Shown here: positions 235 through 21,925 of the stretch, piece by piece
How positions within the stretch are numbered: the stretch's first letter is position 1
Layout of the letters: each line of letters begins with the position of its first letter
Origin: a virus
DNA: 64,000 nt
Virus record (IMG/VR): IMGVR_UViG_3300001848_000349
Span: 481 to 64,480 of that record
Reading direction: 5' to 3' (one strand)
Notes under the pieces: model-generated
Seen by the model: the letters and a program-made list of their open reading frames with translations, nothing else
Told to the model about the DNA's origin: nothing
Database searches by the model: none
Translations under genes and position numbers: made by a program

Positions 235-242
235 TATTTATA
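235..242 (-). promoter_or_regulatory. T4-type late promoter TATAAATA for gp13, overlapping the cpeT stop codon
   Basis: tatttata at 235-242 on the + strand. Confidence 0.8.
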
Positions 243-681: not shown

Positions 682-694
682 TTCACCCTCCAAT

Positions 695-4200: not shown

Positions 4201-7200
4201 CTGTTTGGTTACCATTACAATAACCATTTGGAGTTACTCCAGAAATCTGTACAAATGAACCAACTGGAATAGCAATTGGGAATGCTGAGTGGGTTACAGT
4301 AAAGCTAGATGTAGTTGAAGTGATAGCAGTAATCGTTGCTCCACTTGTTCCAGCAGTTACTACAAAACCAAATTGTGAAATTCTTGTGCCAGCAGTTACA
4401 CCAGTTCCAGATAAAATATTTCCTAAAGTTAAAGTTCCAGTAGGAGCAGTAGTAATAGCAAGACATGTGGTAGCAATTTGTCCCGTAAATGTTCCTGTTG
4501 GATCAGTAAGTGATAGGTTATTGGCAGCACCAATATCAGTGATCGTTGATCTTGTTTGATAAACTGGAGCAGTATTAACGCCAGCACTAACTAATACTTG
4601 TCCTGTAGCAACAGCAGCAAGACCGCTTGTAGTGCCAACAGCAGATTGATATAGAATTGCTCCAACTGTGTTGCCAGAAGCAGGGACCGTGCTGACAGCA
4701 GTACCAGCAGCAAGAGTACTTTGGTTAACCCATTGTGGAGCTGTAGCACCAGTGTTAACGGTCAATACTTGGTTAGCAGTACCAGTTGCTAACTTAGCAG
4801 TAGCACCAGCACCAGATTGATATAAAATATTACCAGCAACACCACCAGAAATATTGTTTGATGTTCCTACTGTTACTGATGTATTAGTTGTCCATTGTGG
4901 AGCAGATCCACTTGAAGTTAAGATGGCATTAGATCCACCAATTGCCAATGTCGTTGTAGCGCCAGCAGCAGTTTGATAAGGAATAGATCCAGCAGCACCA
5001 CCAGCAATATTAGTTGCTGTTCCTACTGATAAACTAGAAGCATTCGCGTAAGTAGGAGCAGAAGCACCACCAATAATTACTTGAGTTGATGTACCAAGTG
5101 CTAAAAATGCCGTTGCTCCAGCAGCAGTTTGATAAGGAATAGATCCAGCAGCACCAGCAGCAATATTAGTTGCTGTTCCTACTGCTAGTGAAGATTGATT
5201 AGTCCAAGAAGGAGCAGCTGCTGATCCTCCAGAAAGAAGAACTTGGTTAGCAGTACCAGTTGATAACTTAGACGTTGTGTTAGCAGCAGATTGATAAAGA
5301 AGTTTAAAGTTATCTCCAGCAACTGAAGTAATGTTACCAGCAGTTAAAGTAGTTGGATCTGTCCATTGTGGAGCAACTGATGTAGTATTGTAAGTAAGAA
5401 CGTAACCATTTGTACCAACAGCAAGTTTAGATGTAGTTCCAGCACCAGATTGATAAAGAAGTTGACCAGCAGCCCCGCTTGAAATATTACCAGCAGTAAT
5501 ATTTGTTTGATCCGTCCATGAAGGAGCAGCAGCAGAACCACCAGAAATTAATACTTGGTTAGCAGTACCAGTTGATAACTTAGAGGTTGTATTGGCAGCA
5601 GACTGATAAAGAATCTTAAAGTTATCAGCAGCAAGTGAAGAAATATTACCAGCAGTTAAGTTTGCTTGATCTGTCCATGAAGGAGCAGTGGCACCAACGT
5701 TAACAATCAATGCTTGACCAGCAGTTCCGATTGCTAGTTTTGATGTAGCACCAGCAGCAGATTGATATAGAATCTGACCAGCAGTACCACCAGCAATATT
5801 ACCAGCAGTGATGCTACTTTGTGCTAACCAGGATGGGTTGGCACCAGCACCACCAGTTTGAAGAACATAACCAGCAGTACCAGCAGCAAGTTTAGATGTA
5901 GTTGAAGCAGCAGATTGATATAGAATATCTCCTTGAGCACCACCGTTAATATTTCCAGCAGTAACGTTTGATTGATCTCTCCAAATTGGTTTTGTGTTTG
6001 TTCCGTCATAGAACAGTACTTGACCATCGGTTCCTACAGTGAGTTTGGCAGTAGCACCAGCACCAGATTGATAGAGAAGTTGACCAGCAGATCCAGCATC
6101 AATGTTGCCAGCAGTAATAGTATTTTGTGCTACCCATGTTGGGTTAGCGCCTGTACCGTTTGTTCTTAGAATGTAACCAGAAGTTCCTACTGCTAGTTTT
6201 GAAGTTGTTCCAGAAGCAGACTGGAATAGTAATTCACCTTGATTACCGCCAGCAATATTACCAGCAGTGATATTAATTTGATTTGTCCAGAGAGGAGCAT
6301 TTGCTGTTGGATTAACAATCAATACTTGACCAGCATTACCAATTGGTAGTGATGTTGTTACGTTAGCACCAGATTGATATAGAAGTGAACCAGCAGCACC
6401 ACCAACGGAAACGGCAGTAGCACTAGAAGCATTACCAGTGAACGATCCAGAGAAAATCTTGGTTGTTAATGTTCCAGTGAATGGGTTGAAGAATAATCCA
6501 GTTGTAGCATCTGTATTGTATAATACGTTGGTGTATGATACGTTAGTAGCAAAGAATGGAATAGCATATGAACTATCAGTTGCTGTTTCGGAAGTAATCT
6601 TAATTGTATTTGATTGTCCAGAAGTTAATGTACTTTGAGCAACCCATTGAGGAGCTGTGGCACCAGAGTTAACGGTTAATACTTGACCAGCAGTTCCAAT
6701 ATTTAATTTTGTTAGTGTTGGAGTTGTAGCGTTAGCATAGAGTAAATCGCCAACAGCATAAGAATTAATTCCAGTACCACCACGTAATGCTGATAGAGTA
6801 CCAGCATCAGCATTATTCATATTAGTGTAGTAAGCACCAGTTTGATCATCTAATAAGTCAGCGTTTAAGTTTGTGACCTTGGTTGTAGATGAAACTGTTA
6901 ATGGAGCAGTTCCTTGTGGAGCAGGAATAATTAATTGACCAGACTTATCAAATGAGAATGTTCTGGATGTAGTAATTGTAGTATCGGTTGATCTTGTGGC
7001 ATCATCAGCGAATACAAAATCTAATCTTCCACCAGCCCCAGTTCCTACACCAGTAGCATCCGAATGCTTGAGTAAGAATCCATAATTTGATGTTTGATAC
7101 TTAGTAGCACCACCAGTAATGTAGATACCACCAGCAATATGATCTCCAGAAGTTCTTAGAATTGAGTAATCTCTTGTATTGAAATCTCTTCCATCTAATA

Positions 7201-10200
7201 GGTCAGCATCTAATCCAGATCCAGCACCATCATTGTTTTCATTCCAAATTCTATAATCGTTTGAACCAGAGCTATAGAAGATTGAACTATTATCTTTGGC
7301 GAAGAATCTAATGGTTCTATCAGCATCTACTTGTGCCCAGGTTGCTAATGTATTAGCAGCAGATCCATTTCCAATCGCTAGGTATAGAGAAGAACCACTA
7401 TTACCAATTGCCCATGTTCTGCCAGTTCCTGTGCTACCAGCAATACCTTGTAGACTTAAAGAACCACCATCAGCGATTAATCCAGCAACAACTTTATTGC
7501 TATAATTATCTGGGTCAACAACTGTATTATCAGCAAGTTGAGCAGCATCATTGACGGTAAGGAATCCAGTTAATGTTGTTGTTCCTCCAACAGAAATATT
7601 GCCAGAGGTTGAAGTATCTGTATCAGATCTCATTACCTGAGACTTGGTAATTCCTTGTAGGAAGTTAGCATTTAATCCAGAAGTATCGGTGTCATTACCA
7701 GAATGCCATACAGTGTTTGTATTGTATGTAAATCCAGCACCAGTGATGTTTAGAGAACCAGTGCCATTATCTGATGAACCACCAGTAACTTGGAATCTTA
7801 CATCATAATCATTATTTCTTCCGCTTGAATGGAAGTCAATAATAGCACCATTAGCAGGTACGTTGTTTGAAACAATATTGCTATCGTTTCTTCCTAGGAT
7901 TAATCTAGCACCAGTTCCATCATCTTGTAATGTAGCTGATGTATAAGTTCCAAAAGAACTAATTCTTACCGTAGTAAATGGTTGTTCATTTCCTGTTGTA
8001 CCAATTCTTGTGGCAGCACCAATAATACCTGTATCTAAAGATACGGTGTAAATTACATAATTTAATTCTGTGTTAATTGTTTCTAGTGGAAACTTCTGTT
8101 CAATTTGTTTGATTGTTACTTGTCCTACGTTTTGTAGGTTATCATTATAAAGATTTAATTGTTGCCCAATGCTGTAATTTAAATCACCATTGTTTAATCT
8201 ATTGGAGAAATAAATTTCGTAATGAGTAAAGTCAATATATTTTGTGAGGTTAATTGAGTTCAAGAATTTCTTAGAACTCATGATAGGTTGTAATCTAGCA
8301 TCAGAAATGCTACCACCATCAAGGTTTAGAGCATTTGTATACCATGCTCTTGTTCTACCATGCATCTTGTCGGCATCTAATCCAGATCCAGCACCGTCGT
8401 TACCAGAGGTCCATACTTTATACCATTGTGACCAAGCATTTGTAGGATCGGTAGGAATGAGGTTACCACTACCACGTAGATACATGTTTGGTACAACATC
8501 ATCGGCAGGAGATGCTGATGATCCACCACCACCAGAGTTAACATAAGGAGTACCATCTGTGAAAGCAAGTTGTTTAACACCACCGCCACCAGCATCGTTA
8601 CCAACACCAGATGGCCTCAACGTTAGAATTGAAACTCTATCGCCTTCATTTTCTAATGTTCTATCAGCAATATTATATCTAAAGTTGGAAGAAACTCTTA
8701 CAGCAAGAGTCATACCTTGAGTATATGCTGAAGGTGCTGGAACAGCATTAATAGAATCCACAATAGAATCTAGTCTTGCTGTAGAACCAGACTTACCTGT
8801 AACGTCAATTGAATATGAACCAGAGAGTCTATCTGTTCTAAGTGTACCTGCTTCTAGGTTAGAAGCATCAAGATAGAAAGCACCTTGCTTACCATCAAGT
8901 AAGTCAGCATCTAATCCAGATTCTGGACCAGTCTTAAGTGTTAGAGCACCGTTAGGACCAAAGGTATATTGTGACTTGAGGAATCTGGAAACACCTACAG
9001 TACCAAAAGCATCTAATGATGTTGTTTGGTTTGTTGTTCTCTTGATATCTACTTCAATATTGGAGAAGTAAATTTGCTGAGTAGAAACTAATCCTCTTAG
9101 TTTTGCTCCAGTACCAATTCCTAAAATACCAGGGATTGGATCTACAACAAAGTCAGTAGCGTATTGAATACCACCATCAGTGATAACAGCATTTGTAATT
9201 TTTCCACCTAGAACAGTGAATGAAGCTTTAGCTCCTGTTCCTGTTCCACCATCAGTTCTAAAGATTTCTACGTTATTGTATGTGCCATTGTTATAATATA
9301 CTCCAAATGTTACAGATTCATTAGTAATATTTTGAGTTAATGTTTGATCAATATTAACAGTAGCAGTAAAATCTACACCTGGGTTTAATGGAACAACTGA
9401 TGTTACTAAAGCACCAGATGGAACTTTTGATGAAAATACTTCTTGATCTTCAAGAATTCCACTGTAATCTCCTACAGTGAAGAAATTATCTCCAGAATTA
9501 CCAGAAAGAATTGTGGTTGTTACAGCATCTCCAGAGTTTTCAATGAAGATTGAATCAACAAATCCACCTTTAGTGAATGAAGATTCGAACTGTAATGGAG
9601 TTTCAGTTCTAGTAAAGGTGATAATTTGACCAGGAAGAATGTCATCAGTAATCAAACTACTTATTGATACTCTTGTATTTCCTTCTACAACAGTAACATC
9701 AATTACAATTGTATTTGCTAGAATACCGTTTCCAGAAACTTTTTGACCAGTTTGAACTAATGATGTCCTTTCTAATGTGATGTAGCTTAGTCCAGCTTCA
9801 GACTTAAGATATGCTAAACGTAAGAACTTGACTTCTGGTAGTTTAATACCTTGAACAACTGGTTTGTAAGTTTGATCTCCACGTAAGAAAGTAAATGAGT
9901 TGGCGGAACCAGTACCTAATCTTGAAGAAGAAATAATACCAGTAGTAATCGAACCAGCATCAATAGTTTGTGAAGTTAGAGGAACCCAATTGCCTTCATT
10001 TTGGGAAGAAATATTAACAACTCTAGTTATATCTAATGTTCTTTGTGGAGAATTATTAGATTTAATTGTATCAACATCAGTAAACTTAACAGCGTTTTGA
10101 ATCTTGATGTATACTCTACTTTCTACAAATGCCTGTAGAGAAGCTCTTTCACCAACGTAAGCATAGAAGCAAGTACCACCATCAGCAGGTTGTGGAATTG

Positions 10201-13200
10201 AAGATTGACCACTGAATGCTGCTGTTCCAGAAGTACCAGCAGTTGTGACTTCATATAACTCAAGACCTACATTAATTAGTTCTCCGACTGTGTAACTTTG
10301 ATTAGCAGACCAAGCAATTTCTCCAACATTAATATTTACAGTTGGAGCAACAGAATATCCACTACCAATGTTTGTCATGGTAATGGAAGAAATAGCAGTG
10401 CCAACTACAGTAGCAGTTGCTGTTGCTTGTACTCCACCTCCTTGATCTGGAGCAGAAATAACTACAGATGGTGTTCTGTATTGATAGATATCACCACCAG
10501 TTGCTCTAACGATTGAGTATACTACACCAAACGATGAGGATGTAATTTGACCAATAGCACCAGTAGCACTTCCAGTTACTAATCTTCCAGTTGTAAATAC
10601 GGTTCCAATATTTGGAGCATATGATAAGTATTGTGAATCAACATCATTATTAAGAATGTAAGAAACAGTACCAGTAGCAATACTAATTCCAGTATTTCCA
10701 CTACCAGCAGATGTGATTGTTAATGGAACTTCATCAATTACATTCTCTGGCGATGAAGCAAGTTGAATGTAATTAGGAGCTTTCAGAATAATATAATAGG
10801 TATTTCCTTCTACAATAGGACCAGCATTTGTTGCTGGTGGAGTAGCAGCTGAACTTGTAATAGTAACAATTTGACCACTTGAGAATCCTGTTTTAGGCGT
10901 ATAGATTTGATTGTTATCTACATCAATATCAGCATCGGATACGATGTCATTGAGTCTTGTTACCTGTACGGCAATATCACCAGCATTTAATCCTTCTAGA
11001 GCAAGTCTTTGATTAGTGCTTCCTACAGTATAAACTTTGAATGGTCTGATAGGTGGAATTTGATCTAGGTTGATCTTACCATCATTACCAAGTTCTACCA
11101 GAGCATTTGGAATTGGATTGTTTGAATATGGTTTACCGAAGTATGGACCAAGGTTATTGGTAACGAAGTCTTTAACCGCTTTCTGTGTTGGTAGTTTTTG
11201 GTTGGTAGCAGCAGCACCACCCATTGTTGGTGAAACATCAAATCCAGTAATGATTAGATCTCCACCACGAATACGTAAGAATTCAATTTCAGAAATCGAT
11301 ACCTGACCAGTAAAGTAAATGTTACCAGTACGGTTTTGCATTTTAACGGTTAGACCAACTTTAAAGTCACCAGCTTCATCAGTACCAGAAGCATATACTC
11401 TACCGTAACGTTGTGAAACCTGTTCGTTTTCTTCTTTCTTTTGACCACCATTTTCTGGTAGACCGTAATAATCAGTACCAGAACCAATGTATTCAAATGA
11501 GTGACCCGAGGAGTTAATAATAGAAGGTCTGTATAGTCTGATTGTCTTACCAATCAACTCAGATGTGTTTAGGTTAACTCTTTGACCAGTAGTATTATTT
11601 CTAAGGAGTAGAGCATCGTTGAATTCAACTCTAGCAGATACTTGACCAGTACCACCTACAGTAGCTCCAGTAACTACAGTGACGTAGTATTCAATACCAG
11701 ATACTACATTGCTATAACCATCGATCTTCATTACGAAGTTTTCAACTGGTTTTCTACCTAGTCCATTGATCTTGAATACAGTTTTACCAGCAGAAGTTGT
11801 AGCGATTTCTCCGATAGTACCAATATCAAATGGGTATGGATCTTTTCTGTATCCTACAGCACGTAGAGCATAAGTACCAAAGTTTGAAGCAGAGTTGGTA
11901 ACAGAAGCATATCCACCAGATTCAGCAAGAATACCATCTTGACAGAAGATACAGAATACAGATACCAACTGACAGTATCCATCATTGTTGACTAGGTATC
12001 CTGTACCACCTTGAGAAATGATGGTGAAGGCGTTAGCAACCATCGACTTACCTTGTGGAGCAAGTTTTGCTTTGCCATCTTCTCTTAGTCCTGGGCGAGG
12101 AACGTTGATTTGTTTGATCTTAGATCCATCAACTTCACAACCACCGCCACCTAAGAATGAAATAATAGAACAGTTTTGGATGTAAGGTGATACCTCAATA
12201 ATATCGTTGGCATTAATCATTCTGCCACGAATTACAGGACGGTTGCTGGCATCAATCATTGTGCCAGAACCTTGTACAACTGTAGGATTATAAAGAGTTC
12301 CTGGGTTTATAATAGGCGAATAAGAATTTTGTGCTACAATATCAGGTAATCCATTTCCATTTAATACAGAAGATAGAATATCAAAAATAGTTGTGATAGT
12401 AGATACAACGTTAGCACATTCTGGATATGAAGAATCAACAGTGATGAAATCATCAGTAAATGGTCTTTGTGTTCCTTTAAAATATGCCCCAGAGAAAATA
12501 CCAGGAATATTTTGTGATCTGTAAACAGTTACGTTATAATTTGTACCATATGTTGGTGATGGTAGTGGAGCTCCAGATTGTTCGAGAACTAAATCTAAAA
12601 TACCCCACAATGAAGTAATTGTTGATTGTATATTAGCACAAGATGCTGGATCTGTATTTGATCCAGTAGAAGGATCTGCTAAGATAGTTAAATCTTTATA
12701 AGCAGTTTCTGATGTGTATGTTCCAGTACTTGGGAGAGTATTTGTTACAGCTTGAAGAACTAAATTCTTAGCATATTCAAAAGCGTAACGGGTCTTGACA
12801 ACTTGATCATTAACGTAAATAACAGCACCAGAAGAATTGAGATATGATTTAGCTGCCTGTATACTACCAGAGTTACCACCAAGGATTAAATCTTTAATCC
12901 AAGCAGTCATATTGAGTTGAATATCTCTCTTACACTTAGGTTCGTTTGGAATATTAATAAGAGGATATTGATTATTGGCAGCACCAAGAGCTTCTTCAGC
13001 AATATATTTGAAGTTCTTAGCAATTAAAGTAGCAGCATCAATCTTAGTTCCACCAGATTTATTGGTAATAATATCAATAAAGATTTGGAATAAAGAATTG
13101 ATAGAAGATTCAACGAATGAGCACTGTGGATAACCAGCAGGATCCAATAGATTTGAATTTGTTACATAGTTTGAGGTAGCAAATTGCTTAGTATATTGTG

Positions 13201-16200
13201 TGTTAGAACCATTGATATACCAATTTCTCATAGCAAGAACTGCTAAATCTTTAGCTTTCTTGAATGTTTCGATACTTTGAATTAACTGATTACCAATGCT
13301 ATCTAAGTGACCAGCAGCATCTCTATAATAAGTAGCAGCTCTAATAGTCTCGGAGTTTCCACCATACCTTAAATCATGAATAAGAGCATCTAATACATAT
13401 CCAATATCTCTCTTACATGTAGCATTATTGTATTGTGAAACAAGTTCAAGATAACCAGTTGATGGAGTAAGAGTAGTTAGATAAGGATATCTGTCTTCAA
13501 TATATCCTACTGCTTCATCAGCAATGAATGTCTTGTTAGCAGCAATACTATTAGCAGCATCAAACCATGGAGCACCTACATTGCTGTAGGTGAAGTACAG
13601 AGTTGCTGAAGAAGTAGAAACACTAGCATTAAATGCTGTAGCAGTTAAAGATTGTGATCTTCCTAAGGTTACTGTATTATTGGTTCTGTTAATTCCAATT
13701 ACGTAAGCATAGGTATTGCCATTTGTATATCTAAATTGATTGGCAGATACTCTCATTCCAAGAACAACACCATCAGTATTTGGTAGAGTAACTACATTAT
13801 TGTTGTTTACTGTGGTACAATTTCTAATTTCAAAGTTCCAATTTCTAGCAGCAGCAACAGAAAGATGTTTAGCATACTCATAAATGTGTAGAGTTTTTGC
13901 TAGTTCGTTATTGACATAGGTTACGTTTCCTGTAGCACCAGAAATATAAGCATCAGCAGCAGTTGTGATACCTGTGTTACCACCTAGAATTGTATCTTTT
14001 TGTACTGCTCTTAGAATAAAACGAAGATCTCTCTTACATTTTGTTATGCTAGGAATTGAAGTTGATGGATATTGATTTTCTCCAGCAGCAAGAGCTTCTT
14101 CAATAATGAACTTCTCATTAATAGCAATTTGATTGGCAGCATCTAAGAATCTATTTGAAGCATTTCCTGATAGAATATCAACAATTAAATCAAATCTATT
14201 TGTAATGTCAGAAGCTACGTTAGTACAATATGGTATATTTGTATCTTCAATTACGAATGGATCTTGTACATAATCTAAATCAGCATACTGTTTTACATAG
14301 TATTGCTTTTGAGGAAACTCTTTCCAGTTTCTCATAGCAAGAATACATAGATCTCTTGTCTTTCTGAAAGCAGATAGAGATTGAATTAACTGACCATCAA
14401 TAAATGTGATTGGACCATTGCCACCAGTTTTGTAGTTGTTAGCATAAGTAATGCTATTTTTGTTTGATCCTAGTGTGATATCATTAATCACAGCATCAAT
14501 CATGTACTTGATGTCTCTAATACACTTCTGTTCGTTTAGAGAATAAGTGCCTCTCGAAACTGTAATTGAATTTAATGCTGTTAAATTACCAGCAGTAACA
14601 GTTGTAGTTACAATAGAAACTAGAGTTGTAATATTAGAAGCAACGTTAGCACATGATCTTACATCATAGTTATCGTTAGTTACAGCATCAGGAGTAATTG
14701 TAAAGTCTCTGTAAAGCAATTGATTTCTCATGGCATCAATCATGAGATCTCTAGCTTTGTTGAATGCTGTTACTGATTGATTTTCTTCTCCAGATAATCC
14801 GTTTGTAATTGGATTTCCTTCTTGGAAATAATAACGGGCAGCATTAATTGTACGCCAGTTAGATCCGTCGTAAACATCATCAGCGACGGCATCTACAATG
14901 TAACCTAGGTCTCTAGCACAAATAGATTCACCAGGATTGAATACTCCAGTATTTACTGTTGATTGATCTAGAGATAGAAGATTACCAGCAGTAAGTGTTG
15001 AATTGATGAACGTTGATAGAGTATCTAAAGCAGCCTGAACATCAGTACAAGAAGCAGCATTACCAGATTGAGATACTGGGATGTTACCACCACCTCCACC
15101 ATAATTAGCAGGACCAGAAGTTAATGTTAAATCTTTAGTATAAAGTTGATTAGTAACTGCTTTCTTCATCATGGTGTTTGCCATGGCAAAAGCAGTAACC
15201 GAAGGACCTTCTTCTCCAAGTAATCCATTTGTTAATGGGGAAGAAACATTAGTGAAGTATTGGGTTACAAAATCACGAGAATATTTGTTTCCTTTTGTGA
15301 AAAGATCAAGTGAAACAGCATCAGTGAAGAATCCAATATCACGCTTACACTTTAATTGATTTGGTGATGGTGATCCTTGACTTGAAGCAGCAAGGAATTG
15401 TGCTGCTGTAGAACCACCTAGATTACCAGCAGTGATAGTTGAGGTAACCGTAGCAGTTAATGTATCTACAAATGTTCTTACGTTAGCACAAGAAATATCA
15501 CTTACGTTTGAACCAGTTAAAGGATCAGCAGTAATTGTTTTATCTTTAAAATAAAGTTGGTTTGTGATGGCACCTTTGATTACATCTCTTGCTTTATTGA
15601 AAGCAATGTTTGAAGGTAGTTGCTCTCCATTTAATCCAGCACTAATCCAAGTAGTACCATCTGGTGTGAAGTAATAAGTTAAGAATTTTCTGACGTTGTA
15701 GTTACCACCTTGCTTGAGATCTTTCTCAATGGCATCTACAAAGTAACCTACATCACGCTTACACTTAGTTTCTCCAGGTGTAATTGTGGCAGATACTTCA
15801 GCAGGTAGTCCTGTTAAAGTACCAGCATTAATTACAGAAGTTACAATTGTTGTTAATGTATCAACAGCAGTTCTTACGTTAGCACATGATGTTTCATCAT
15901 TATTTGAGTTTGTTGTTGGGTCAGCAGTGATTGTAAAGTCTTTTGTATAAAGTTGGTTTGTAATTGCCAACTTCATAATATCCCTTGCTTTATTGAAAGC
16001 AACAATTGATTGTGCTTCTTCTCCTAAAAGACCGTTTGAAATTGGAGAACCATTATTAAAGTATTGTTGTACGAATTTTCTTGTGTAAACGTTTCCACTT
16101 CCTTGGCAGATATCTAAAGAAATAGCATCAATAAAATAACCGATGTCACGCTTACACTTGGATTCGCCAGCAGGAATTGTACCTGTTGTTTCTGCTGGTA

Positions 16201-19200
16201 GACCATTAACATTTCCTGCTGTAATAACTGATGTAACTACAGATGCTAAAGTATCAATAGCAGTTCTTACGTTAGCACAAGAATTTGGATTAGTGTTTGA
16301 TGGACTACCAGAAGAAGGAGATGGGTCTGCTGTGATTGTTAAATCTTTGATTGTTAACTGGTTTGTGATAGCAGACTTCATCAAGTCACGAGCTTTATTG
16401 AAAGCAACGTTTGATTGTGCTTCTTCTCCTACAAGACCATTTGAAATAGGATTACCATTATTAAAATACTGTAGGATAAACTTACGAGTATATCTGTTAC
16501 CACCACCTTGAGCGATATCTAGAGAAAGAGCATCAATAAAGTAACCTAAGTCACGCTTACATTTTGTAGGACTTGGGTTTACAAATGTTGGGTATTGAAC
16601 GGCAATTTGAGCAAATGCTGTATCAATAATTTCTTGTCTGTTTAATTGAATTAAACGATACGAATCTTTGAATCTTGATGTTGAATTTGATTGTGTATCA
16701 CCAGGATAGTAGAAGTCTGGATACTGTACACCAATTTCAGCAGCTGCTCTATCAATAATTTCTTGTCTGTTCTGCTGAATTAAACGATACGAATCTTTAA
16801 ATCTATTTACAGCATTGCTGGCAGAATCACCAGGAATTACAAAGTTATTTCCCCAAGCAGTTTCGCTGTACTGAGCAGAGATTTCAGCAACAGCGCGGTC
16901 AATGATTTCTTGCTTGTTGTTGTAAACTAGATTGGCGGCATCTTGGAATCTATCATTATATCCAGAAACTTTTGCTGCTAAACTGTTTAAATTGCCAGCA
17001 GTGATTGGACCAGTAATTACAGTGGTTAGGGTATCAATCGTAGTCTGTACATCAGCACAAGAAGCAGCATTACCAGATTGAGATACTGGAATGTTACCAC
17101 CAGATCCACCATAGGTAGCAGGTCCAGCAGTTAAAGTTAGATCTTTTGTATAAAGTTGATTAGTAATCGCCTTCTTCATCATGTCACGAGCCATGTTGAA
17201 AGCAACTACAGATTGTGCTTCTTCTCCTACCAATCCATTGCTTAATGGAGTTGTGGCATTAGTGAAGTATGATTGAACAAATTTTCTGCTGTAAGTATTT
17301 CCACCAAGGAAAACATCTAAAGCAACAGCATCAATTAAGAATCCTAAATCTCTCTTACACTTAGATTCACCAGCAGGAATGCTTCCTGTAGTTTCTGATG
17401 GAAGACCTGTGAGATTACCAGCGGTAATTCTATCAGTAATTAACGTTGTTAAGTTTGTAATTGCTGTTTGAACATTGGCACAAGATGCTGGATTAGTATT
17501 GGATCCAGTATCTGGATCAGCAGTTACAGTCAAATCTTTGATTGCTAATTGGTTAGCAATCGCTTTTTTCATTTCATCACGGGCTTTATTGAAAGCAGCA
17601 ATCGATTGTGCTTCTTCTCCTACTAAACCGTTGCTGAGTGGAGTTGTAGCATTAGTGAAGTATTGTTGAATAAACTTACGTGAATATACATTTCCTCCAC
17701 CTTGAGCAATATCAAGAGAAACAGCATCAATAAAGTAACCTAAGTCACGCTTACACTTGGTTCCATTCGTATCACCAGGAATAGAACCACCAGAAGCAGC
17801 ATAAGCAGTATTGATAATACTTGTTTTATTTTGTTGAATCAGACGATAAGCATCTTTAAATCTTGAAGTTGCTGTAGTTTGAGAATCACCAGGATAATAA
17901 AAATCTGGATATTGAATAGCAATTTCAGCAGCTGCTCTATCAATAATTTCTTGTTTGTTTTGCTTGATTAATCTATAAGCATCAAAGAATCTGCTACGTG
18001 GATTTGTCTGAACATCGCCAGGGAAGTAGAAGTCTGGATATTGTACAGCAATTTCAGCAGCTGCTGTATCAACAATCTCTTCTTTGTTTTGTTGAATTAA
18101 ACGATAACCATCAAAGAATCTGCTATTAGCATTAGTTTGGTCATCTCCAGGGAAGTAGAAATCAGGATACTGTACTCCAACTTCAGCAAGAGCTTTCTCA
18201 ATGATATATGTACGATTCTTTTTGATGAGATTTGAAGCATCCTTAAATCTCATTGAGTCATCTAGATATACATCTGGACGAACAACAATATTTTCTACAA
18301 CACCTTTTACTGCTTTGCTTATGTAAATTCTAGAAGTTTCTGTTGCAAAAGAAGTAATATAAGTGTTATCTTGAATATTAGCACCACTAATTAATTGACC
18401 AACTTTTAAATTAGTGAAACTTGATACTTGTAAATATGCTGGATAAGCATCAACAGCACTATTTGTAACTACGTTTTTATTGAACGTAGGTAGAGGATAA
18501 GCAAATCCTTTGTAAGTATCTTTTAACCAACCAGTTACTTCCTGAGCAATAAAATCTTTATTTGATTCAATTAAATTAGCAGCATCGAAATAACGATATG
18601 CTACGTTATTAGTTACAATTTTTTGAATTAATGTGAATAAAGAATTTAGAGCAGATGCTACGTTAGTACATTCTGGGAATTCTGGATAATCTGTAGTTCT
18701 AGGAACAAGGTTATCAAACCATAGAGGAGTGAATGAAGTTTGTCCTTCAGTTAATTTTAAATTAGTTGGTCTTTGACCAGTTCCAAAAGAATGATCCGAA
18801 CCAGATTGACCAGTAGCATATTTCCAAATAATGAATTGAGTTGGAGAAACTACTTCCTTAATGTAGTAATCTGATTCTACTTCATTGCTTTCATTATATG
18901 TGTAAACTCTCATTTTTGGAACTAATCCAAGAGTAGAAGCAACTTCTACTACATCACTTCCTGCTTTGAAAGTACAATTAATTTTTGTCTTCCAGTTCCT
19001 CATGGCAAGGACACAGTAATCTCTTGCTAATTGGAAAGCATAGCTAGATTGTCTGTGCTGATTATCAATTAGATATAAAGAGTTATTAGCATTATTAATA
19101 TAAGTTTTTGCTGCTTCAATACTAAGAGCATTTCCTCCATATGGAAGATCAGCAATTACGGCATTAATAACATGTTTAATATCTCTCTTACACTTGTTCT

Positions 19201-21925
19201 CGCCATCAGTTGTATTTGTTGTTACGGTAGGTAGTGAATTTAAATTACCTGCTGTAATTACTGTGGTTACAATAGATGCTAAAGTATCAATAGCACTTCT
19301 TACGTTAGCACAGTTAGTTTCTTTTACATTTAATTTTGTAGTTGGATCAAACGTTAAAGAAAGATCTCTAAATGGTTTAAATGTAGAATACTTTCCTTTT
19401 AAAGGAAGAGAGTTTGTGATAGCAAGTTTAGCAAAATCTCTAGCTTTGTTGAAAGCAGCAACTGATTGTGCTTCATCTCCAACTAATCCACCAGAAATAG
19501 GAGCACCAGAAACGGAATTGAAATATGATTTTGCTACAGCAATACTATTTCCATTTCCACCATCATATAAGTCGTTAGCAATTCCTCTTAAGAAATACTT
19601 AACATCTCTCCTACATTTTGTTTGAAGACTTAAATTTTGTTGACCCCAAGTAGCAGCATATGAAGATTCTGTCCATAACCATCCAATGACTTCATCGGCA
19701 ATATAATCTAAGTTCTTGTAAATTAAGTTTCTAGAATCTTTAAATCTATATCTGGTTGGATCTGTTCCAGGATAAATGAAGTCTGGATATTTGGATGAAA
19801 TAGCGCCAGTAATTTCTTCAGCAATAAAATCTCTATTATTTCTTATAAATGTTACGGCATCTAACCATCTATAAGAAGTAAATACAGAATCTGAGAATCC
19901 GTATGGTGAGTTTAAGAGCGTTAATTCAACATAACTTGTTTTAGATCTTGCTGTACACTTACCAGCAGGAGGTAAATATACAGTGTTATGATTTGGTCTA
20001 AGTTGTTTCTTAATTACAATTCTTCTTGAGAAACCATCAGCATCATAGAGAACTTGATCAACTCTTTGATAACCAAAGAATGATGCTAATTCTGCTGGAG
20101 CATTTGCTGGTTTTGTGATATTAACAATATCAAATTCTTTTAGATCATGTAATCCAGAGAATTTAAAAATAACACCACCACTTCCAGCAGTTGGTGTTCC
20201 TAGATCTCCAGGAGTTGGATATGTTGTCCATTGAGTGCTGTCAATAGATTCTACAACATAATTTCTTACTTCTCCATCAACGTATTTTACAACTTCACCT
20301 TCTGCTCTTGTTGATGTAAATTTACCTGCTTTAGCAGTATAAATGGTATTTCCTATTTGATAGGAAATGTTTTCATCAGCAATATATGAGAAAGCAGGAG
20401 AATTTTCTTTTACTGTAATGTTTAAAGATGCCTTTGTTTTATCACCAACATAAATGTAAGCACAAGTTCCTTGTGTTGCTGTTCTTGGTGTAGAGTCTTG
20501 ACCAGCAAAAGGAACTGTACCAGAATCTCCACCTACACTAACACGGTAAATAGAATTATTTACAGATACAACATCACCAACGTCATAAGTAGCATTAGCA
20601 CTCCAAGCATAATCTGGAATTGGAGTGGCAAAAACTATAGAGGTGATCGTAGAAGTACAAGAAGTTGTATCACCTAAAATGATACCATCAGTAGCACTAC
20701 CAGCAGTAGCGGCAGCAATAGCTGCCTGTAGTGTTGTTATATCTCCATTATGTTCTTTAATTTCAAGTAAAGCAGTTCTTTGACCGAACATTTTATGTCC
20801 GATCGGGAAGTTTCTTTTAAATGCTTCACCACCAATCTCTTCATCAAAATAAAATCTTTGCTTGTCATCAAAAACGAAAGCAAAGTTAAATGTGTAAGCA
20901 GGATTACCTTCCGAATCTAAAGCATCACGGAAAGTAATACCATTCATATAGTTTTGATTACTGGCTTTAAACATATGTTTGCCAGGATTCAATGGTCTTA
21001 CGATTACAAGACGTAAGTTGTCACCAATTACGGAACATAGTGGTGGAATTGAAATTGGGTTATCTTCATAATATTCACCACCAGCAACAATTAGAGTTTC
21101 TCTACCAGGAGTAGAAGCAGCAATCTGAGCAGCTCTTTTGATTGTTTTTACTGGTTTTGCTGGAGAACGACCATTGTTTTGATCGTTTCCAATTTCAGAC
21201 GAAACGTAAACACGACCACCTACGTCATTTGTAGCAACGTTATATACAAATTGAGTGGTGGCAATTCTATCACTTTGATCGCCTAGTGGTGGAGTGATCG
21301 ATGTTGGGTATAAAGTTTCTCCGTAATATGGAAGATTTGGATTGGTTAAATTAGTATAAGAAACTAACTCAGGAGCATTTAATCTAATTTTTGGAGTTAC
21401 GAAATTTCTTACACTTAGGTTATTAACAGTAGCACTATCACTAATAATAGATGAAGAAGTTCTGATAGCACCTAAAATATCTAAGTCATAATCAATACTG
21501 TCTAACTCACAAGTAGCTCTTGCTGTAATACCAGTTATTGGTGCTTCACTAAATGTAATTGTTGGTGGAGTTACATATCCTAAACCTGGATCTACGATAA
21601 CTACGGAAAGAATAGAACCAGTATCAGGATCTCTAACAGCACTTAGAACAGCTGTTTTAGCATTTGGGTTATTACCAGTTGGAGCACTCGCTGTAACTGA
21701 AGGAGCATCAAGATAACCGCTACCTGGATTGGTGATGGTAACTTTAAAAACTTTTTCACCAGTTTTATTAATACCTACTCTCGATCCAGTTTCTTTCTTT
21801 ATAATTCTTACAATTTCTTTATTATTGCTTCCTAAACCAGAGCTAATAGTAACAAATTCTTTACCATCAATATTAAGCTGATTAGCTTCAATTTTTTCCT
21901 TGCTTGGATTAAACTTTAAGCTCAT
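1298..21925 (-). CDS. Giant multidomain tail fibre / receptor-binding virion protein (6875 aa)
   Basis: GSGY..P.V repeats, ATTQFV fibre motif, split pectin-lyase-like beta-helix, 13 helical CxRD domains, CBM5/12-like WSAN..Y.VG motifs, several GLDADLLDG fibre motifs, gp37-like IDFHS...DYDVR, 13 ~51-aa repeats, Gly-rich adhesin-like C-terminus. Confidence 0.85.
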   Translation of the reverse strand: MSLKFNPSKEKIEANQLNIDGKEFVTISSGLGSNNKEIVRIIKKETGSRVGINKTGEKVFKVTITNPGSGYLDAPSVTASAPTGNNPNAKTAVLSAVRDPDTGSILSVVIVDPGLGYVTPPTITFSEAPITGITARATCELDSIDYDLDILGAIRTSSSIISDSATVNNLSVRNFVTPKIRLNAPELVSYTNLTNPNLPYYGETLYPTSITPPLGDQSDRIATTQFVYNVATNDVGGRVYVSSEIGNDQNNGRSPAKPVKTIKRAAQIAASTPGRETLIVAGGEYYEDNPISIPPLCSVIGDNLRLVIVRPLNPGKHMFKASNQNYMNGITFRDALDSEGNPAYTFNFAFVFDDKQRFYFDEEIGGEAFKRNFPIGHKMFGQRTALLEIKEHNGDITTLQAAIAAATAGSATDGIILGDTTSCTSTITSIVFATPIPDYAWSANATYDVGDVVSVNNSIYRVSVGGDSGTVPFAGQDSTPRTATQGTCAYIYVGDKTKASLNITVKENSPAFSYIADENISYQIGNTIYTAKAGKFTSTRAEGEVVKYVDGEVRNYVVESIDSTQWTTYPTPGDLGTPTAGSGGVIFKFSGLHDLKEFDIVNITKPANAPAELASFFGYQRVDQVLYDADGFSRRIVIKKQLRPNHNTVYLPPAGKCTARSKTSYVELTLLNSPYGFSDSVFTSYRWLDAVTFIRNNRDFIAEEITGAISSKYPDFIYPGTDPTRYRFKDSRNLIYKNLDYIADEVIGWLWTESSYAATWGQQNLSLQTKCRRDVKYFLRGIANDLYDGGNGNSIAVAKSYFNSVSGAPISGGLVGDEAQSVAAFNKARDFAKLAITNSLPLKGKYSTFKPFRDLSLTFDPTTKLNVKETNCANVRSAIDTLASIVTTVITAGNLNSLPTVTTNTTDGENKCKRDIKHVINAVIADLPYGGNALSIEAAKTYINNANNSLYLIDNQHRQSSYAFQLARDYCVLAMRNWKTKINCTFKAGSDVVEVASTLGLVPKMRVYTYNESNEVESDYYIKEVVSPTQFIIWKYATGQSGSDHSFGTGQRPTNLKLTEGQTSFTPLWFDNLVPRTTDYPEFPECTNVASALNSLFTLIQKIVTNNVAYRYFDAANLIESNKDFIAQEVTGWLKDTYKGFAYPLPTFNKNVVTNSAVDAYPAYLQVSSFTNLKVGQLISGANIQDNTYITSFATETSRIYISKAVKGVVENIVVRPDVYLDDSMRFKDASNLIKKNRTYIIEKALAEVGVQYPDFYFPGDDQTNANSRFFDGYRLIQQNKEEIVDTAAAEIAVQYPDFYFPGDVQTNPRSRFFDAYRLIKQNKQEIIDRAAAEIAIQYPDFYYPGDSQTTATSRFKDAYRLIQQNKTSIINTAYAASGGSIPGDTNGTKCKRDLGYFIDAVSLDIAQGGGNVYSRKFIQQYFTNATTPLSNGLVGEEAQSIAAFNKARDEMKKAIANQLAIKDLTVTADPDTGSNTNPASCANVQTAITNLTTLITDRITAGNLTGLPSETTGSIPAGESKCKRDLGFLIDAVALDVFLGGNTYSRKFVQSYFTNATTPLSNGLVGEEAQSVVAFNMARDMMKKAITNQLYTKDLTLTAGPATYGGSGGNIPVSQSGNAASCADVQTTIDTLTTVITGPITAGNLNSLAAKVSGYNDRFQDAANLVYNNKQEIIDRAVAEISAQYSETAWGNNFVIPGDSASNAVNRFKDSYRLIQQNRQEIIDRAAAEIGVQYPDFYYPGDTQSNSTSRFKDSYRLIQLNRQEIIDTAFAQIAVQYPTFVNPSPTKCKRDLGYFIDALSLDIAQGGGNRYTRKFILQYFNNGNPISNGLVGEEAQSNVAFNKARDLMKSAITNQLTIKDLTITADPSPSSGSPSNTNPNSCANVRTAIDTLASVVTSVITAGNVNGLPAETTGTIPAGESKCKRDIGYFIDAISLDICQGSGNVYTRKFVQQYFNNGSPISNGLLGEEAQSIVAFNKARDIMKLAITNQLYTKDFTITADPTTNSNNDETSCANVRTAVDTLTTIVTSVINAGTLTGLPAEVSATITPGETKCKRDVGYFVDAIEKDLKQGGNYNVRKFLTYYFTPDGTTWISAGLNGEQLPSNIAFNKARDVIKGAITNQLYFKDKTITADPLTGSNVSDISCANVRTFVDTLTATVTSTITAGNLGGSTAAQFLAASSQGSPSPNQLKCKRDIGFFTDAVSLDLFTKGNKYSRDFVTQYFTNVSSPLTNGLLGEEGPSVTAFAMANTMMKKAVTNQLYTKDLTLTSGPANYGGGGGNIPVSQSGNAASCTDVQAALDTLSTFINSTLTAGNLLSLDQSTVNTGVFNPGESICARDLGYIVDAVADDVYDGSNWRTINAARYYFQEGNPITNGLSGEENQSVTAFNKARDLMIDAMRNQLLYRDFTITPDAVTNDNYDVRSCANVASNITTLVSIVTTTVTAGNLTALNSITVSRGTYSLNEQKCIRDIKYMIDAVINDITLGSNKNSITYANNYKTGGNGPITFIDGQLIQSLSAFRKTRDLCILAMRNWKEFPQKQYYVKQYADLDYVQDPFVIEDTNIPYCTNVASDITNRFDLIVDILSGNASNRFLDAANQIAINEKFIIEEALAAGENQYPSTSIPSITKCKRDLRFILRAVQKDTILGGNTGITTAADAYISGATGNVTYVNNELAKTLHIYEYAKHLSVAAARNWNFEIRNCTTVNNNNVVTLPNTDGVVLGMRVSANQFRYTNGNTYAYVIGINRTNNTVTLGRSQSLTATAFNASVSTSSATLYFTYSNVGAPWFDAANSIAANKTFIADEAVGYIEDRYPYLTTLTPSTGYLELVSQYNNATCKRDIGYVLDALIHDLRYGGNSETIRAATYYRDAAGHLDSIGNQLIQSIETFKKAKDLAVLAMRNWYINGSNTQYTKQFATSNYVTNSNLLDPAGYPQCSFVESSINSLFQIFIDIITNKSGGTKIDAATLIAKNFKYIAEEALGAANNQYPLINIPNEPKCKRDIQLNMTAWIKDLILGGNSGSIQAAKSYLNSSGAVIYVNDQVVKTRYAFEYAKNLVLQAVTNTLPSTGTYTSETAYKDLTILADPSTGSNTDPASCANIQSTITSLWGILDLVLEQSGAPLPSPTYGTNYNVTVYRSQNIPGIFSGAYFKGTQRPFTDDFITVDSSYPECANVVSTITTIFDILSSVLNGNGLPDIVAQNSYSPIINPGTLYNPTVVQGSGTMIDASNRPVIRGRMINANDIIEVSPYIQNCSIISFLGGGGCEVDGSKIKQINVPRPGLREDGKAKLAPQGKSMVANAFTIISQGGTGYLVNNDGYCQLVSVFCIFCQDGILAESGGYASVTNSASNFGTYALRAVGYRKDPYPFDIGTIGEIATTSAGKTVFKINGLGRKPVENFVMKIDGYSNVVSGIEYYVTVVTGATVGGTGQVSARVEFNDALLLRNNTTGQRVNLNTSELIGKTIRLYRPSIINSSGHSFEYIGSGTDYYGLPENGGQKKEENEQVSQRYGRVYASGTDEAGDFKVGLTVKMQNRTGNIYFTGQVSISEIEFLRIRGGDLIITGFDVSPTMGGAAATNQKLPTQKAVKDFVTNNLGPYFGKPYSNNPIPNALVELGNDGKINLDQIPPIRPFKVYTVGSTNQRLALEGLNAGDIAVQVTRLNDIVSDADIDVDNNQIYTPKTGFSSGQIVTITSSAATPPATNAGPIVEGNTYYIILKAPNYIQLASSPENVIDEVPLTITSAGSGNTGISIATGTVSYILNNDVDSQYLSYAPNIGTVFTTGRLVTGSATGAIGQITSSSFGVVYSIVRATGGDIYQYRTPSVVISAPDQGGGVQATATATVVGTAISSITMTNIGSGYSVAPTVNINVGEIAWSANQSYTVGELINVGLELYEVTTAGTSGTAAFSGQSSIPQPADGGTCFYAYVGERASLQAFVESRVYIKIQNAVKFTDVDTIKSNNSPQRTLDITRVVNISSQNEGNWVPLTSQTIDAGSITTGIISSSRLGTGSANSFTFLRGDQTYKPVVQGIKLPEVKFLRLAYLKSEAGLSYITLERTSLVQTGQKVSGNGILANTIVIDVTVVEGNTRVSISSLITDDILPGQIITFTRTETPLQFESSFTKGGFVDSIFIENSGDAVTTTILSGNSGDNFFTVGDYSGILEDQEVFSSKVPSGALVTSVVPLNPGVDFTATVNIDQTLTQNITNESVTFGVYYNNGTYNNVEIFRTDGGTGTGAKASFTVLGGKITNAVITDGGIQYATDFVVDPIPGILGIGTGAKLRGLVSTQQIYFSNIEVDIKRTTNQTTSLDAFGTVGVSRFLKSQYTFGPNGALTLKTGPESGLDADLLDGKQGAFYLDASNLEAGTLRTDRLSGSYSIDVTGKSGSTARLDSIVDSINAVPAPSAYTQGMTLAVRVSSNFRYNIADRTLENEGDRVSILTLRPSGVGNDAGGGGVKQLAFTDGTPYVNSGGGGSSASPADDVVPNMYLRGSGNLIPTDPTNAWSQWYKVWTSGNDGAGSGLDADKMHGRTRAWYTNALNLDGGSISDARLQPIMSSKKFLNSINLTKYIDFTHYEIYFSNRLNNGDLNYSIGQQLNLYNDNLQNVGQVTIKQIEQKFPLETINTELNYVIYTVSLDTGIIGAATRIGTTGNEQPFTTVRISSFGTYTSATLQDDGTGARLILGRNDSNIVSNNVPANGAIIDFHSSGRNNDYDVRFQVTGGSSDNGTGSLNITGAGFTYNTNTVWHSGNDTDTSGLNANFLQGITKSQVMRSDTDTSTSGNISVGGTTTLTGFLTVNDAAQLADNTVVDPDNYSNKVVAGLIADGGSLSLQGIAGSTGTGRTWAIGNSGSSLYLAIGNGSAANTLATWAQVDADRTIRFFAKDNSSIFYSSGSNDYRIWNENNDGAGSGLDADLLDGRDFNTRDYSILRTSGDHIAGGIYITGGATKYQTSNYGFLLKHSDATGVGTGAGGRLDFVFADDATRSTDTTITTSRTFSFDKSGQLIIPAPQGTAPLTVSSTTKVTNLNADLLDDQTGAYYTNMNNADAGTLSALRGGTGINSYAVGDLLYANATTPTLTKLNIGTAGQVLTVNSGATAPQWVAQSTLTSGQSNTIKITSETATDSSYAIPFFATNVSYTNVLYNTDATTGLFFNPFTGTLTTKIFSGSFTGNASSATAVSVGGAAGSLLYQSGANVTTSLPIGNAGQVLIVNPTANAPLWTNQINITAGNIAGGNQGELLFQSASGTTSKLAVGTSGYILRTNGTGANPTWVAQNTITAGNIDAGSAGQLLYQSGAGATAKLTVGTDGQVLFYDGTNTKPIWRDQSNVTAGNINGGAQGDILYQSAASTTSKLAAGTAGYVLQTGGAGANPSWLAQSSITAGNIAGGTAGQILYQSAAGATSKLAIGTAGQALIVNVGATAPSWTDQANLTAGNISSLAADNFKILYQSAANTTSKLSTGTANQVLISGGSAAAPSWTDQTNITAGNISSGAAGQLLYQSGAGTTSKLAVGTNGYVLTYNTTSVAPQWTDPTTLTAGNITSVAGDNFKLLYQSAANTTSKLSTGTANQVLLSGGSAAAPSWTNQSSLAVGTATNIAAGAAGSIPYQTAAGATAFLALGTSTQVIIGGASAPTYANASSLSVGTATNIAGGAAGSIPYQTAAGATTTLAIGGSNAILTSSGSAPQWTTNTSVTVGTSNNISGGVAGNILYQSGAGATAKLATGTANQVLTVNTGATAPQWVNQSTLAAGTAVSTVPASGNTVGAILYQSAVGTTSGLAAVATGQVLVSAGVNTAPVYQTRSTITDIGAANNLSLTDPTGTFTGQIATTCLAITTAPTGTLTLGNILSGTGVTAGTRISQFGFVVTAGTSGATITAITSTTSSFTVTHSAFPIAIPVGSFVQISGVTPNGYCNGNQTVNGIYGLWLVNSSTTTTTTITNGAVNLGPAFINTNNGPTITPISNGGIGLYTVDTSQSAASTTITHTRSLAFHYQSGSNTSTAINYAGQVTSESNKFGQLNQILRNVGNTPSWTDSHGYIDIPATTTLNLLTVAPYAKWFYIELWSSGAGGGGGHGFRNNTGATGSGGGASGASGGYRSYLIPASSLSSSNSTGTIAAGGLAGVGGLINSVGNTSGTAGGAGSITTLSIPLKTGSTITLSSAPAPNAGGGGGTTTAGVANNSWSTVTSATTSLWGYQDSTDIALAGMNGQNASITATPTQNAWPTESSLSPTSRSLTQTGKAPTGGGAGASLSTAPAILSSGVPANVGSLSYTSSTGTSSTTTAAGTLTTTAVTTGGQAQLIKLTMNTGAALSVGQFINFGATATNAYVVATGWPWPIQIRNITATSTTAITVDTGNVNWQWPGGGTVTISGTTASTGSATQFNQTVTITSSTATGFTASGTGFTNGATMVTSGLAQCNGTGATGGYTISIPLTINAVAASTAATPLLTNLDTAATPGYDLLTTGWAGLGGNGGVSNLHTGNVSVYGQAGGEGGWPGAGGGGGGAARIFTATTTNNGAVTGSIANNTLTVTAITASQTATSGNNATVTGVNASLPGFGILNIGSVSAGAFTTGMTVTGSSLPAGTTIVALGTGTTTGGAGTYIIYGQGLANIGANFTCSGSGQTQAQGMGGSRLALGASLTGTGVAAGTAIKTLPTYSTVSISSITPYWGGAVNPLLMGFVVACSATHGLAVGDLVQIAGTTANTLGTSGVTGWANAYNGYWIVSSVPSTTSFMVYQTWNTGSFIANFTASTANFTVTTATNTIVTGASISCATAGQGPGQSVNSSFFIQARNGGTGAGGGYTLNTGTGISAFTGATIQYALIPGAAGAAGTVLRINNGGVSGSPTTNYIVSGKAQTVASTSIVSAVTAKGGDGGAGGRGHIRVYWY
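4540..6770 (-). repeat. About 13 intragenic ~51-aa repeats (G.LLYQS....T.KL..GT.GQVL....GA.AP.W..Q..ITAGNI)
   Basis: DNA period mostly 153 nt (gattgata/gactggaa anchors at 6372, 6219, 6066, 5913, 5760), with some 159-nt units. Confidence 0.9.
12355..19875 (-). repeat. 13 nested helical repeat domains (RFxDA / CxRD / CxxV segments)
   Basis: 13 copies of each of the three segment types counted in the translation. Confidence 0.85.

Follow-up and report, generated by a model that had tools for sequence, protein, structure and literature searches.

Phycobiliproteins are free subunits of 17-20 kDa, and the X-Y hairpin that they carry forms their alpha-beta pairs. A phycobiliprotein-type domain can also be embedded in a large multidomain protein, as is the PB domain of ApcE, in which the PB-loop is an insertion between helices B and E; this insert is a single loop that contains no phycobiliprotein domain and shows no recursion, and ApcE is an intracellular antenna protein. 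In one-level domain insertion, a parent domain accommodates a whole second domain in one of its surface loops and still folds. Here we describe a giant fibre gene in a 64,000-nucleotide stretch of viral DNA (positions 481 to 64,480 of IMG/VR record IMGVR_UViG_3300001848_000349, hereafter the window), the product of which in all likelihood contains 13 recursively nested phycobiliprotein-fold (globin-like) domains in the giant virion fibre of a T4-like cyanophage. In contrast to the free subunits, the phage copies are parts of a predicted virion protein of 6875 amino acids (aa). Similar to one-level insertion, whole domains would occupy the loops of parents that still fold, but the fold of the fibre would have been inserted into itself repeatedly, to a depth of six (seven in one homologue, L016), with branch points and at least three insertion sites. 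Neither the fold nor domain insertion as such is new; the novelty lies in the recursive self-insertion, its depth and its virion context. We know of no self-insertion of comparable depth, and a full-text literature search found no paper that reports phycobiliprotein-like domains, in nested or any other order, from structural proteins of cyanophages.

The fibre open reading frame (ORF P0001) occupies window positions 1298..21925 on the minus strand, and the region 12355-19875 that the initial annotation had singled out corresponds to approximately aa 684-3190 of its 6875-aa product. Searches of PHROG profiles matched the N-terminal part to tail-fibre family phrog_5342 (E 2.9e-181) and aa 1105-2590 to tail-fibre family phrog_4527 (E 0). 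The top DNA and protein matches of the gene all belong to T4-like cyanophages of Synechococcus and Prochlorococcus, and its neighbours are further giant structural ORFs. On this sequence evidence, the product is a predicted virion fibre protein of a T4-like cyanophage.

Examination of the protein by a regular-expression scan with manual placement located 13 A segments (conserved Asp at aa 689, 730, 1114, 1229, 1272, 1315, 1358, 1662, 1711, 1754, 2595, 2789 and 2963), 13 B segments (Cys of the CxRD motif at aa 771, 912, 1391, 1523, 1789, 1924, 2055, 2193, 2336, 2468, 2630, 2837 and 2998) and 13 C segments (Cys at aa 872, 1086, 1482, 1623, 1883, 2014, 2146, 2293, 2425, 2567, 2935, 3096 and 3170). 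They are arranged in the order AABCBC / AAAAABCBCAAABCBCBCBCBCBC / ABABCABCC, with the numbers and order that the initial annotation had reported. When read by a stack parser in which A opens a bracket, B joins the open A and C closes it, this string closes exactly three times, at aa 1086, 2567 and 3170, to give blocks of 2, 8 and 3 domains. The resulting tree is D1{D2}; D3{D4{D5{D6{D7},D8{D9{D10}}}}}; D11{D12,D13}, and its deepest member, D10, lies at depth 6, reproducing both the three-fold balance and the tree first proposed. The three subtype co-variations listed in the same annotation are also present in the segment alignments: RFFD-type A5 and A6 partner the two YGG.GGNIPVSQSGNAASC B units, RFKD[AS]YRL-type A7, A9 and A10 partner the DI[AC]QG[GS]GN B units, and FIA.E..G-type A1, A3 and A12 partner the AMRNW B units. 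An additional co-variation links RNW-type B with YP.C-type C in four of four cases, one of which joins B2630 with C3170 across 540 residues. In a single protein, 13 A and 13 BC units placed at random would balance with a chance of 1 in 14, and therefore the decisive statistics are those of homologues and covariation. The blocks and domains, all on the minus strand, are as follows, with the basis of each in brackets.

18599..19873, minus, aa 685-1109: bracket block 1, D1{D2} (stack parse closes at aa 1086)
14156..18598, minus, aa 1110-2590: bracket block 2, D3{D4{D5{D6{D7},D8{D9{D10}}}}} (parse closes at aa 2567)
12347..14155, minus, aa 2591-3193: bracket block 3, D11{D12,D13} (inserts between B and C of D11)
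19772..19873, minus, aa 685-718: D1 A segment, helices A/B (stack parse)
18599..19201, minus, aa 909-1109: D1 B+C segments (beta-rich insert separates B from C)
19241..19750, minus, aa 726-895: D2, contiguous domain (stack parse)
18497..18598, minus, aa 1110-1143: D3 A segment (stack parse)
14156..14533, minus, aa 2465-2590: D3 B+C segments (~1350 aa from the D3 A segment)
18152..18253, minus, aa 1225-1258: D4 A segment (stack parse)
14582..14929, minus, aa 2333-2448: D4 B+C segments (stack parse)
18023..18124, minus, aa 1268-1301: D5 A segment (stack parse)
14978..15358, minus, aa 2190-2316: D5 B+C segments (stack parse)
17894..17995, minus, aa 1311-1344: D6 A segment (stack parse)
16988..17368, minus, aa 1520-1646: D6 B+C segments (stack parse)
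17411..17866, minus, aa 1354-1505: D7, contiguous domain (stack parse)
16853..16954, minus, aa 1658-1691: D8 A segment (partner chain in the two-chain complex test)
15419..15772, minus, aa 2052-2169: D8 B+C segments (stack parse, complex test)
16706..16807, minus, aa 1707-1740: D9 A segment (stack parse)
15815..16165, minus, aa 1921-2037: D9 B+C segments (stack parse)
16208..16678, minus, aa 1750-1906: D10, contiguous innermost domain, depth 6 (structural match to phycobiliprotein beta chains)
13820..14155, minus, aa 2591-2702: D11 A+B segments (best single PF00502 match, aa 2590-2650)
12347..12436, minus, aa 3164-3193: D11 C segment (stack parse, B/C subtype match)
13052..13573, minus, aa 2785-2958: D12, contiguous domain (stack parse)
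12569..13051, minus, aa 2959-3119: D13, contiguous domain (stack parse)
15395..16969, minus, aa 1653-2177: AlphaFold2-modelled stretch D8{D9{D10}}, with mean predicted local distance difference test (pLDDT) 88.0 and predicted template-modelling score (pTM) 0.89

Each A+B+C unit had been proposed to form a helical domain, a reading that the AlphaFold2 model and, for D10, VIA-align support; that this domain belongs to the phycobiliproteins had gone unrecognised. In a Pfam search of aa 1-3400, PF00502 (Phycobilisome protein) was the one strong family, at 94.2 bits against a cut-off of 22.2 and with an E-value of 1e-26 that sums many weak per-copy matches; a stretch composed of A segments only matched the same family at E 2.6e-11. 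Profiles of contiguous innermost domains, built from 5 and from 63 sequences, both returned nothing but phycobiliproteins from among all PDB sequences (best E 1.3e-6), and aligned the B-segment Cys with alpha Cys84 inside K-C-x-R-D-I-G-Y. The nested fragment D8{D9{D10}} (525 residues, 29-sequence alignment) was modelled confidently, at the scores listed above. Its inner domain D10 aligned by VIA-align with phycoerythrin and phycocyanin beta subunits at Z 17.2 and a root-mean-square deviation (rmsd) of 2.1-2.2 Å over 139-140 residues; all of the top 50 VIA-align entries are phycobiliproteins or close homologues, and the best chains are beta subunits. Foldseek with the whole 525-residue model placed membrane transporters first, with E-values that are not significant, gave phycobiliprotein rows a probability of 1.0 with poor E-values, and listed ApcE as a weak row (7vea_aM, probability 0.72); VIA-align on the same candidates decided the matter.

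According to the model, the A segment provides helices A and B, the B segment opens with the Cys-x-Arg-Asp motif and forms helices E and G and, between them, a short helix F that is accompanied by a small beta hairpin, and the C segment forms helix H, with a second chromophore-type Cys just ahead of it. Helices A, B, E, F, G and H superpose on those of C-phycocyanin beta and phycoerythrin beta (PF00502) at Z 15-17 and an rmsd of ~2.1 Å, and the phage domain has in common with these beta subunits the C-x-R-D motif, the second Cys ahead of helix H and Asp39. Unlike them, it has no X-Y hairpin and a short B-E loop, and identity is 11-18%. The sequence and structure alignments begin at phycobiliprotein residues 31-39, a short linker precedes each domain, and in some structure alignments the preceding A segment partly overlays the X/Y region. 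As modelled, the A+B+C unit is a globin-like phycobiliprotein fold without the X-Y hairpin, and because the hairpin is missing, an alpha-beta heterodimer is not expected.

In order to follow the brackets beyond this protein, homologues were taken from 11 annotated phage loci and approximately 100 IMG/VR loci, and every long ORF was scanned. First-pass hidden Markov models (HMMs) made from the 6875-aa protein missed many C and some A segments in distant homologues; the A, B and C HMMs were iterated and rebuilt in three rounds, with C the weakest marker and a full parse including C in 33 of 58 ORFs. Numbers of A and B are equal, and closes never exceed opens, in 57 of 58 distinct full-length ORFs. 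The sole exception is L033, where a B segment is split by an insert of ~70 aa, and which is balanced once this B is joined. L009 was considered as another exception and dismissed, as a ~225-aa insert that splits its B segment explains the apparent imbalance. All 33 distinct architectures have a valid bracket order with equal A and B (one of them after joining the split B). They span plain tandem ABC (S-CREM1), AABCBC, AAAABCBCBCBC and branched forms, at depths of 1-6, and a shortened ORF in L016 holds a run seven deep. The C segment of L006 scores weakly, and the terminal copies of L007 and L008 have a C segment that lacks Cys or is undetected. The 13 domains found here are the highest number among the complete genes sampled. 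The nearest relatives (L034-L037) have 11 or 12 domains and are still balanced, indicating that whole brackets are gained or lost. This is the check on homologues that the initial annotation had proposed, and no indel that breaks the balance was seen in the 33 architectures.

Homologous proteins of described phages, namely S-PM2 p091, the S-PM2 T4-GC 734 'short tail fiber' protein, Syn1_032 and S-WAM2 gp224, are built of the same A, B and C units, bracketed differently. A precomputed PF00502 match is on record for most homologues, which are named only 'hypothetical protein' or 'putative short tail fibre'. In S-CREM1 (L008, OP535465), aa ~3885-4700 of a 5424-aa baseplate protein consist of five un-nested tandem ABC domains, the last of which has a C helix without cysteine. 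This plain tandem is probably the ancestral arrangement.

Covariation was used to compare nested with sequential pairing. In the 6875-aa protein, the Mantel correlation of A with B distances is 0.70 for nested and 0.32 for sequential pairing, and 52 of 200,000 random pairings reach the nested value. A coupling model was trained solely on 191 contiguous A-B pairs, in which the pairing is unambiguous, and applied to split domains alone. Nested and sequential pairing differ in 49 proteins, and in 46 of these the model scored nested pairing higher; for the 6875-aa protein, 0.2% of 5040 permutations reach the nested coupling score. The top couplings join A columns 7, 8, 11 and 14 with B columns 11 and 14, and fall inside the interface of a two-chain complex model of A8 with B8C8, segments that are ~360 residues apart in the protein. 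This complex reached an ipSAE (interaction score from predicted aligned errors) of 0.65, against 0.00 for the best control. Of 80 solved complexes, 58 attain this mark, as do 2 of 110 mismatched pairs; the counts apply only roughly here, because the complex was modelled with a custom alignment. In the modelled interface, both A helices pack on helices E and G and on the first part of helix H. In the D8{D9{D10}} model, A8 and A9 have a pLDDT of 94-96. When B8C8 is deleted, A8 and its linker are the only parts to lose pLDDT, and the loss is modest, from 96/95/75/69 to 92/88/60/57. Together with the 33 architectures and the pTM of the monomer model, these results support the insertion of copies into loops and the nested pairing that had been proposed for this protein.

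Of the ten child domains, eight occupy the B-E loop, where they separate the A segment of the parent from its B segment. The other two, D12 and D13, occupy the G-H loop of D11, where they separate B from C, and a third site, within B, is used in homologues L009 and L033. Spacings of 41-49 aa from A to A and 40-47 aa from C to the next B are little above the segment lengths, in agreement with a close out-and-back path of the chain. The loops that hold nested domains are also filled by three beta-rich modules of ~70-90 aa, which have in common a loose G.V.G/V..I pattern and gave zero Pfam matches:

18692-18958, minus, aa 990-1078: beta-rich module
18260-18478, minus, aa 1150-1222: beta-rich module
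13580-13819, minus, aa 2703-2782: beta-rich module

The inserts that split B in L009 and L033 resemble these modules.

We propose that new copies were inserted recursively in the B-E loop of an existing copy, and less often in the G-H loop, such that the chain would lay down N-terminal halves on its way out and C-terminal halves on its return. The blocks of 2, 8 and 3 domains would each be a self-closing all-helical module, probably rigid, with both ends meeting at its base. Since a balanced block would begin and end at the base, the blocks may be closed projections and not in-line connectors, and the modules could serve as length-adjustable projections of the fibre.

The residues retained in the phage domains correspond to those of pigment sites. 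Counted over 368-437 distinct copies per segment type, the A-segment Asp is kept in 95% of copies, the Cys, Arg and Asp of the B segment (437 distinct) in 97%, 87% and 97%, respectively, and the C-segment Cys in 100%, a figure that is partly circular since detection of C leans on this Cys. Among 63 diverse contiguous domains there are seven invariant columns, four of which are the A Asp, the B Cys, the B Asp and the C Cys. Global hhalign alignment against 63 cyanobacterial CpcB sequences, gathered by a DNA pattern scan, pairs the phage invariants with beta Asp39, Cys82, Arg84, Asp85 and Cys153, and the end-points of the VIA alignments agree with the pairing of the C-segment Cys with beta Cys153 and of the A-segment Asp with beta Asp39. 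In phycocyanin, bilins sit on beta Cys82 and beta Cys153, and beta Asp39 hydrogen-bonds the pyrrole nitrogens of the Cys153-linked bilin (PMC6614406).

Next to the fibre gene lies an ORF of a bilin-lyase family:

238..693, minus: CpeT-like T-type bilin lyase ORF (PF06206 and phage CpeT HMM)

It lies on the strand of the fibre gene, 578 nt downstream, matches PF06206 at 28.5 bits against a cut-off of 21 and matches the phage CpeT HMM at E 1e-52. T-type lyases act on the Cys153-equivalent site (PMC10452541). At ~147-151 aa, the encoded protein is smaller than most Synechococcus myophage CpeT proteins (174-179 aa) and nearer in length to the P-HM1/P-HM2 frames (134-135 aa). The cyanophage fibre and baseplate homologues named above have cpeT upstream, whereas the fibre gene of the window has it downstream. 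Of 59 distinct domain-bearing fibre genes with at least 3 kb visible upstream, 15 are preceded by cpeT in the same orientation, at a distance of 14-2112 nt. These 15 cases are mostly one orthologue group, from which the arrangement at 238-693 differs, and apart from the latter the adjacency is largely inherited synteny. A tally of 15 complete genomes, not picked for having the domain, gave domain with CpeT in 10, domain alone in 2, neither in 3 and CpeT alone in none (one-sided Fisher p ~0.02, calculated by hand and uncorrected for phylogeny). Single-query tblastn found cpeT in 66 phage records and the domain in 259-314. CpeT was not detected in S-ShM2, P-SSM7 and B23, which carry the domain, and neither bilin reductase nor heme oxygenase was found in the window's record, a 71.5-kb fragment estimated to be 37% complete, from which no conclusion on their absence follows.

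Several observations on individual phages adjoin this comparison. An unannotated CpeT ORF (HMM E 2.4e-84) is found at 12288-12830 of L011 (S-H9-1, NC_070961), upstream of the fibre gene and within a 500-nt gap of the deposited annotation. P-SSM4 (NC_006884) has a CpeT-family match at ~16642-17064, with 37.4 and 22.9 bits and a 148-aa frame; a 2010 review gives P-SSM4 as having no cpeT (PMC2984593). In S-CAM1, Syn1, S-MbCM7 and S-H9-1 (L001, L006, L010 and L011), at least one 2-oxoglutarate (2OG)-Fe(II) oxygenase gene either separates cpeT from the fibre gene or directly follows the fibre genes, which suggests post-translational modification of fibre proteins. An S-type lyase is carried by the 'cluster C' phages (PMC10665884). 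With respect to adsorption, darkness prevents the attachment of P-HM1 and P-HM2 but not that of P-SSM2, and S-PM2 needs light, though not host photosynthesis, in order to adsorb. P-HM1, P-HM2 and S-PM2 have both domain and CpeT and P-SSM2 has neither, which, for four phages, is a lead and not evidence.

How the segments pair can be read in more than one way. Pairing of brackets inside a single chain explains the results best by a wide margin, and its main rival is interchain swapping in an oligomer. The halves would then still complement each other, with each A pairing sequentially with the BC of the same rank or with the BC of a neighbouring chain by three-dimensional domain swapping. Fibres are usually oligomeric, the coupling score prefers sequential pairing in 3 of the 49 proteins, and A8 without its partner still models confidently, which implies that A segments own other packing surfaces. 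The complex test is moreover blind to cognate versus cousin partners. Indeed, several results weigh against nested pairing or temper it: the complex test, which cousin partners can pass, demonstrates complementation between A and BC and not a specific partner; the drop on truncation of B8C8 is small (96/95 to 92/88), with pTM still at 0.88; covariation could stem from a shared duplication history as well as from contact; and the pairing of outer domains D8 and D9 draws on models and covariation. As for the fold itself, single domains score 14-20 bits, under the PF00502 gathering threshold of 22.2, and the structural match spans the contiguous inner domain D10 alone. Nevertheless, sequential or swapped pairing appears improbable, given the advantage of nested pairing in 46 of 49 proteins and in the Mantel comparison, the spacings of ~41-49 residues that hardly exceed a segment, and the pTM of 0.89 for the monomer. 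In addition, the short linker that joins the innermost A and B recurs in stand-alone ABC domains such as those of S-CREM1, which fixes the inner pairing, and recursion fixes the others. The refuting case named in the initial annotation is an array of two independent helical solenoids, one of A segments in tandem and the other of BC units. Runs of up to five A and six BC do resemble tandem repeats, but A10, B10 and C10 together make a complete phycobiliprotein fold (Z 17.2) to which all other A and BC are homologous, A and B are equal in number in every one of the 33 architectures, and the complex model brings A8 into contact with helices E, G and H of B8C8. We consider separate solenoids extremely improbable.

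Whether these nested domains carry pigment is a distinct matter. We lean slightly towards the same nested architecture in a pigment-free form, in which a fold captured from the host serves as a rigid brick and the Cys residues are free or form inter-domain disulfides in oxidising sea water. Consistent with this, the B-E loop either falls ~8-10 residues short of that of phycocyanin or gives way to whole domains, and a beta hairpin is present in the F region; the B-E loop and F region line the Cys82 pocket of real phycobiliproteins, and their shortening or replacement here counts against pigment at that site. The domain also outnumbers cpeT in the tblastn searches and occurs in the three phages in which CpeT was not detected, and we found no report of pigmented cyanophage virions. 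In contrast, the conserved positions are exactly the Cys/Asp pairs of both beta-subunit bilin sites plus Arg84 (87%), while the remainder has drifted to ~30% identity; the role of beta Asp39 at the Cys153 bilin is documented (PMC6614406); and cpeT adjoins the fibre gene in several arrangements. Homology and the secondary structure of the model would put the two Cys of a domain at the two far ends of the long A-B helix, and a disulfide within one domain is accordingly less likely. Beta Cys82, Arg84, Asp85, Cys153 and Asp39 all have near-invariant equivalents in the phage domains, which is the reason to entertain, tentatively, that bilins are covalently attached at one or both conserved Cys by phage CpeT and host lyases. 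More doubtful still is that the fibre is a true biliprotein on the virion, with up to 26 bilins per chain borne on these Cys and the phage T-type lyase CpeT serving the Cys153-like sites, and that the pigmented array is the light sensor behind the light-dependent adsorption of cyanomyoviruses. The position of cpeT beside fibre genes, the tally of 15 genomes and the adsorption of the four phages are circumstantial support for it.

Outside of the array, three more giant ORFs lie upstream on the minus strand, at 22541-33808 (3755 aa), 34017-42098 (2693 aa) and 44009-52579 (2856 aa). A, B or C segments are absent from all three, and a Pfam search of the upstream 185-aa and 3755-aa ORFs gave zero matches. 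Within the fibre gene itself, window positions ~4826-6748 (minus strand; aa ~5060-5700) contain approximately 12 tandem repeats of ~45 aa each with the pattern ..GNI.GG..G.LLYQSA.G.TSKLA.GT.GQVL.., followed by Gly/Ser/Thr-rich tip sequence. These repeats have no relation to the phycobiliprotein-like array.

The fibre family provides what is probably a natural case of one fold inserted into itself over six to seven levels, with branch points and dozens of balanced arrangements. The nested array is a ready system for the study of discontinuous-domain folding and of change in fibre length by insertion of whole domains. Phage cpeT and bilin genes have so far been read as aids to host light harvesting. 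Gasper et al. reportedly found in 2017 that a phage complex of CpeT with phycoerythrobilin (PEB) was unable to pass its bilin to the host beta subunit. For Prochlorococcus phages, the benefit of the phage cpeT and bilin genes has been called unclear (PMC2984593). A phage-encoded candidate substrate with Cys153-like sites beside cpeT would be a concrete alternative to the host-helper reading. The fibre is a specific candidate for the cause of the light-dependent adsorption of some cyanophages. If true, a biliprotein on the virion would also explain the presence of bilin lyase genes in phages, including those of Prochlorococcus.

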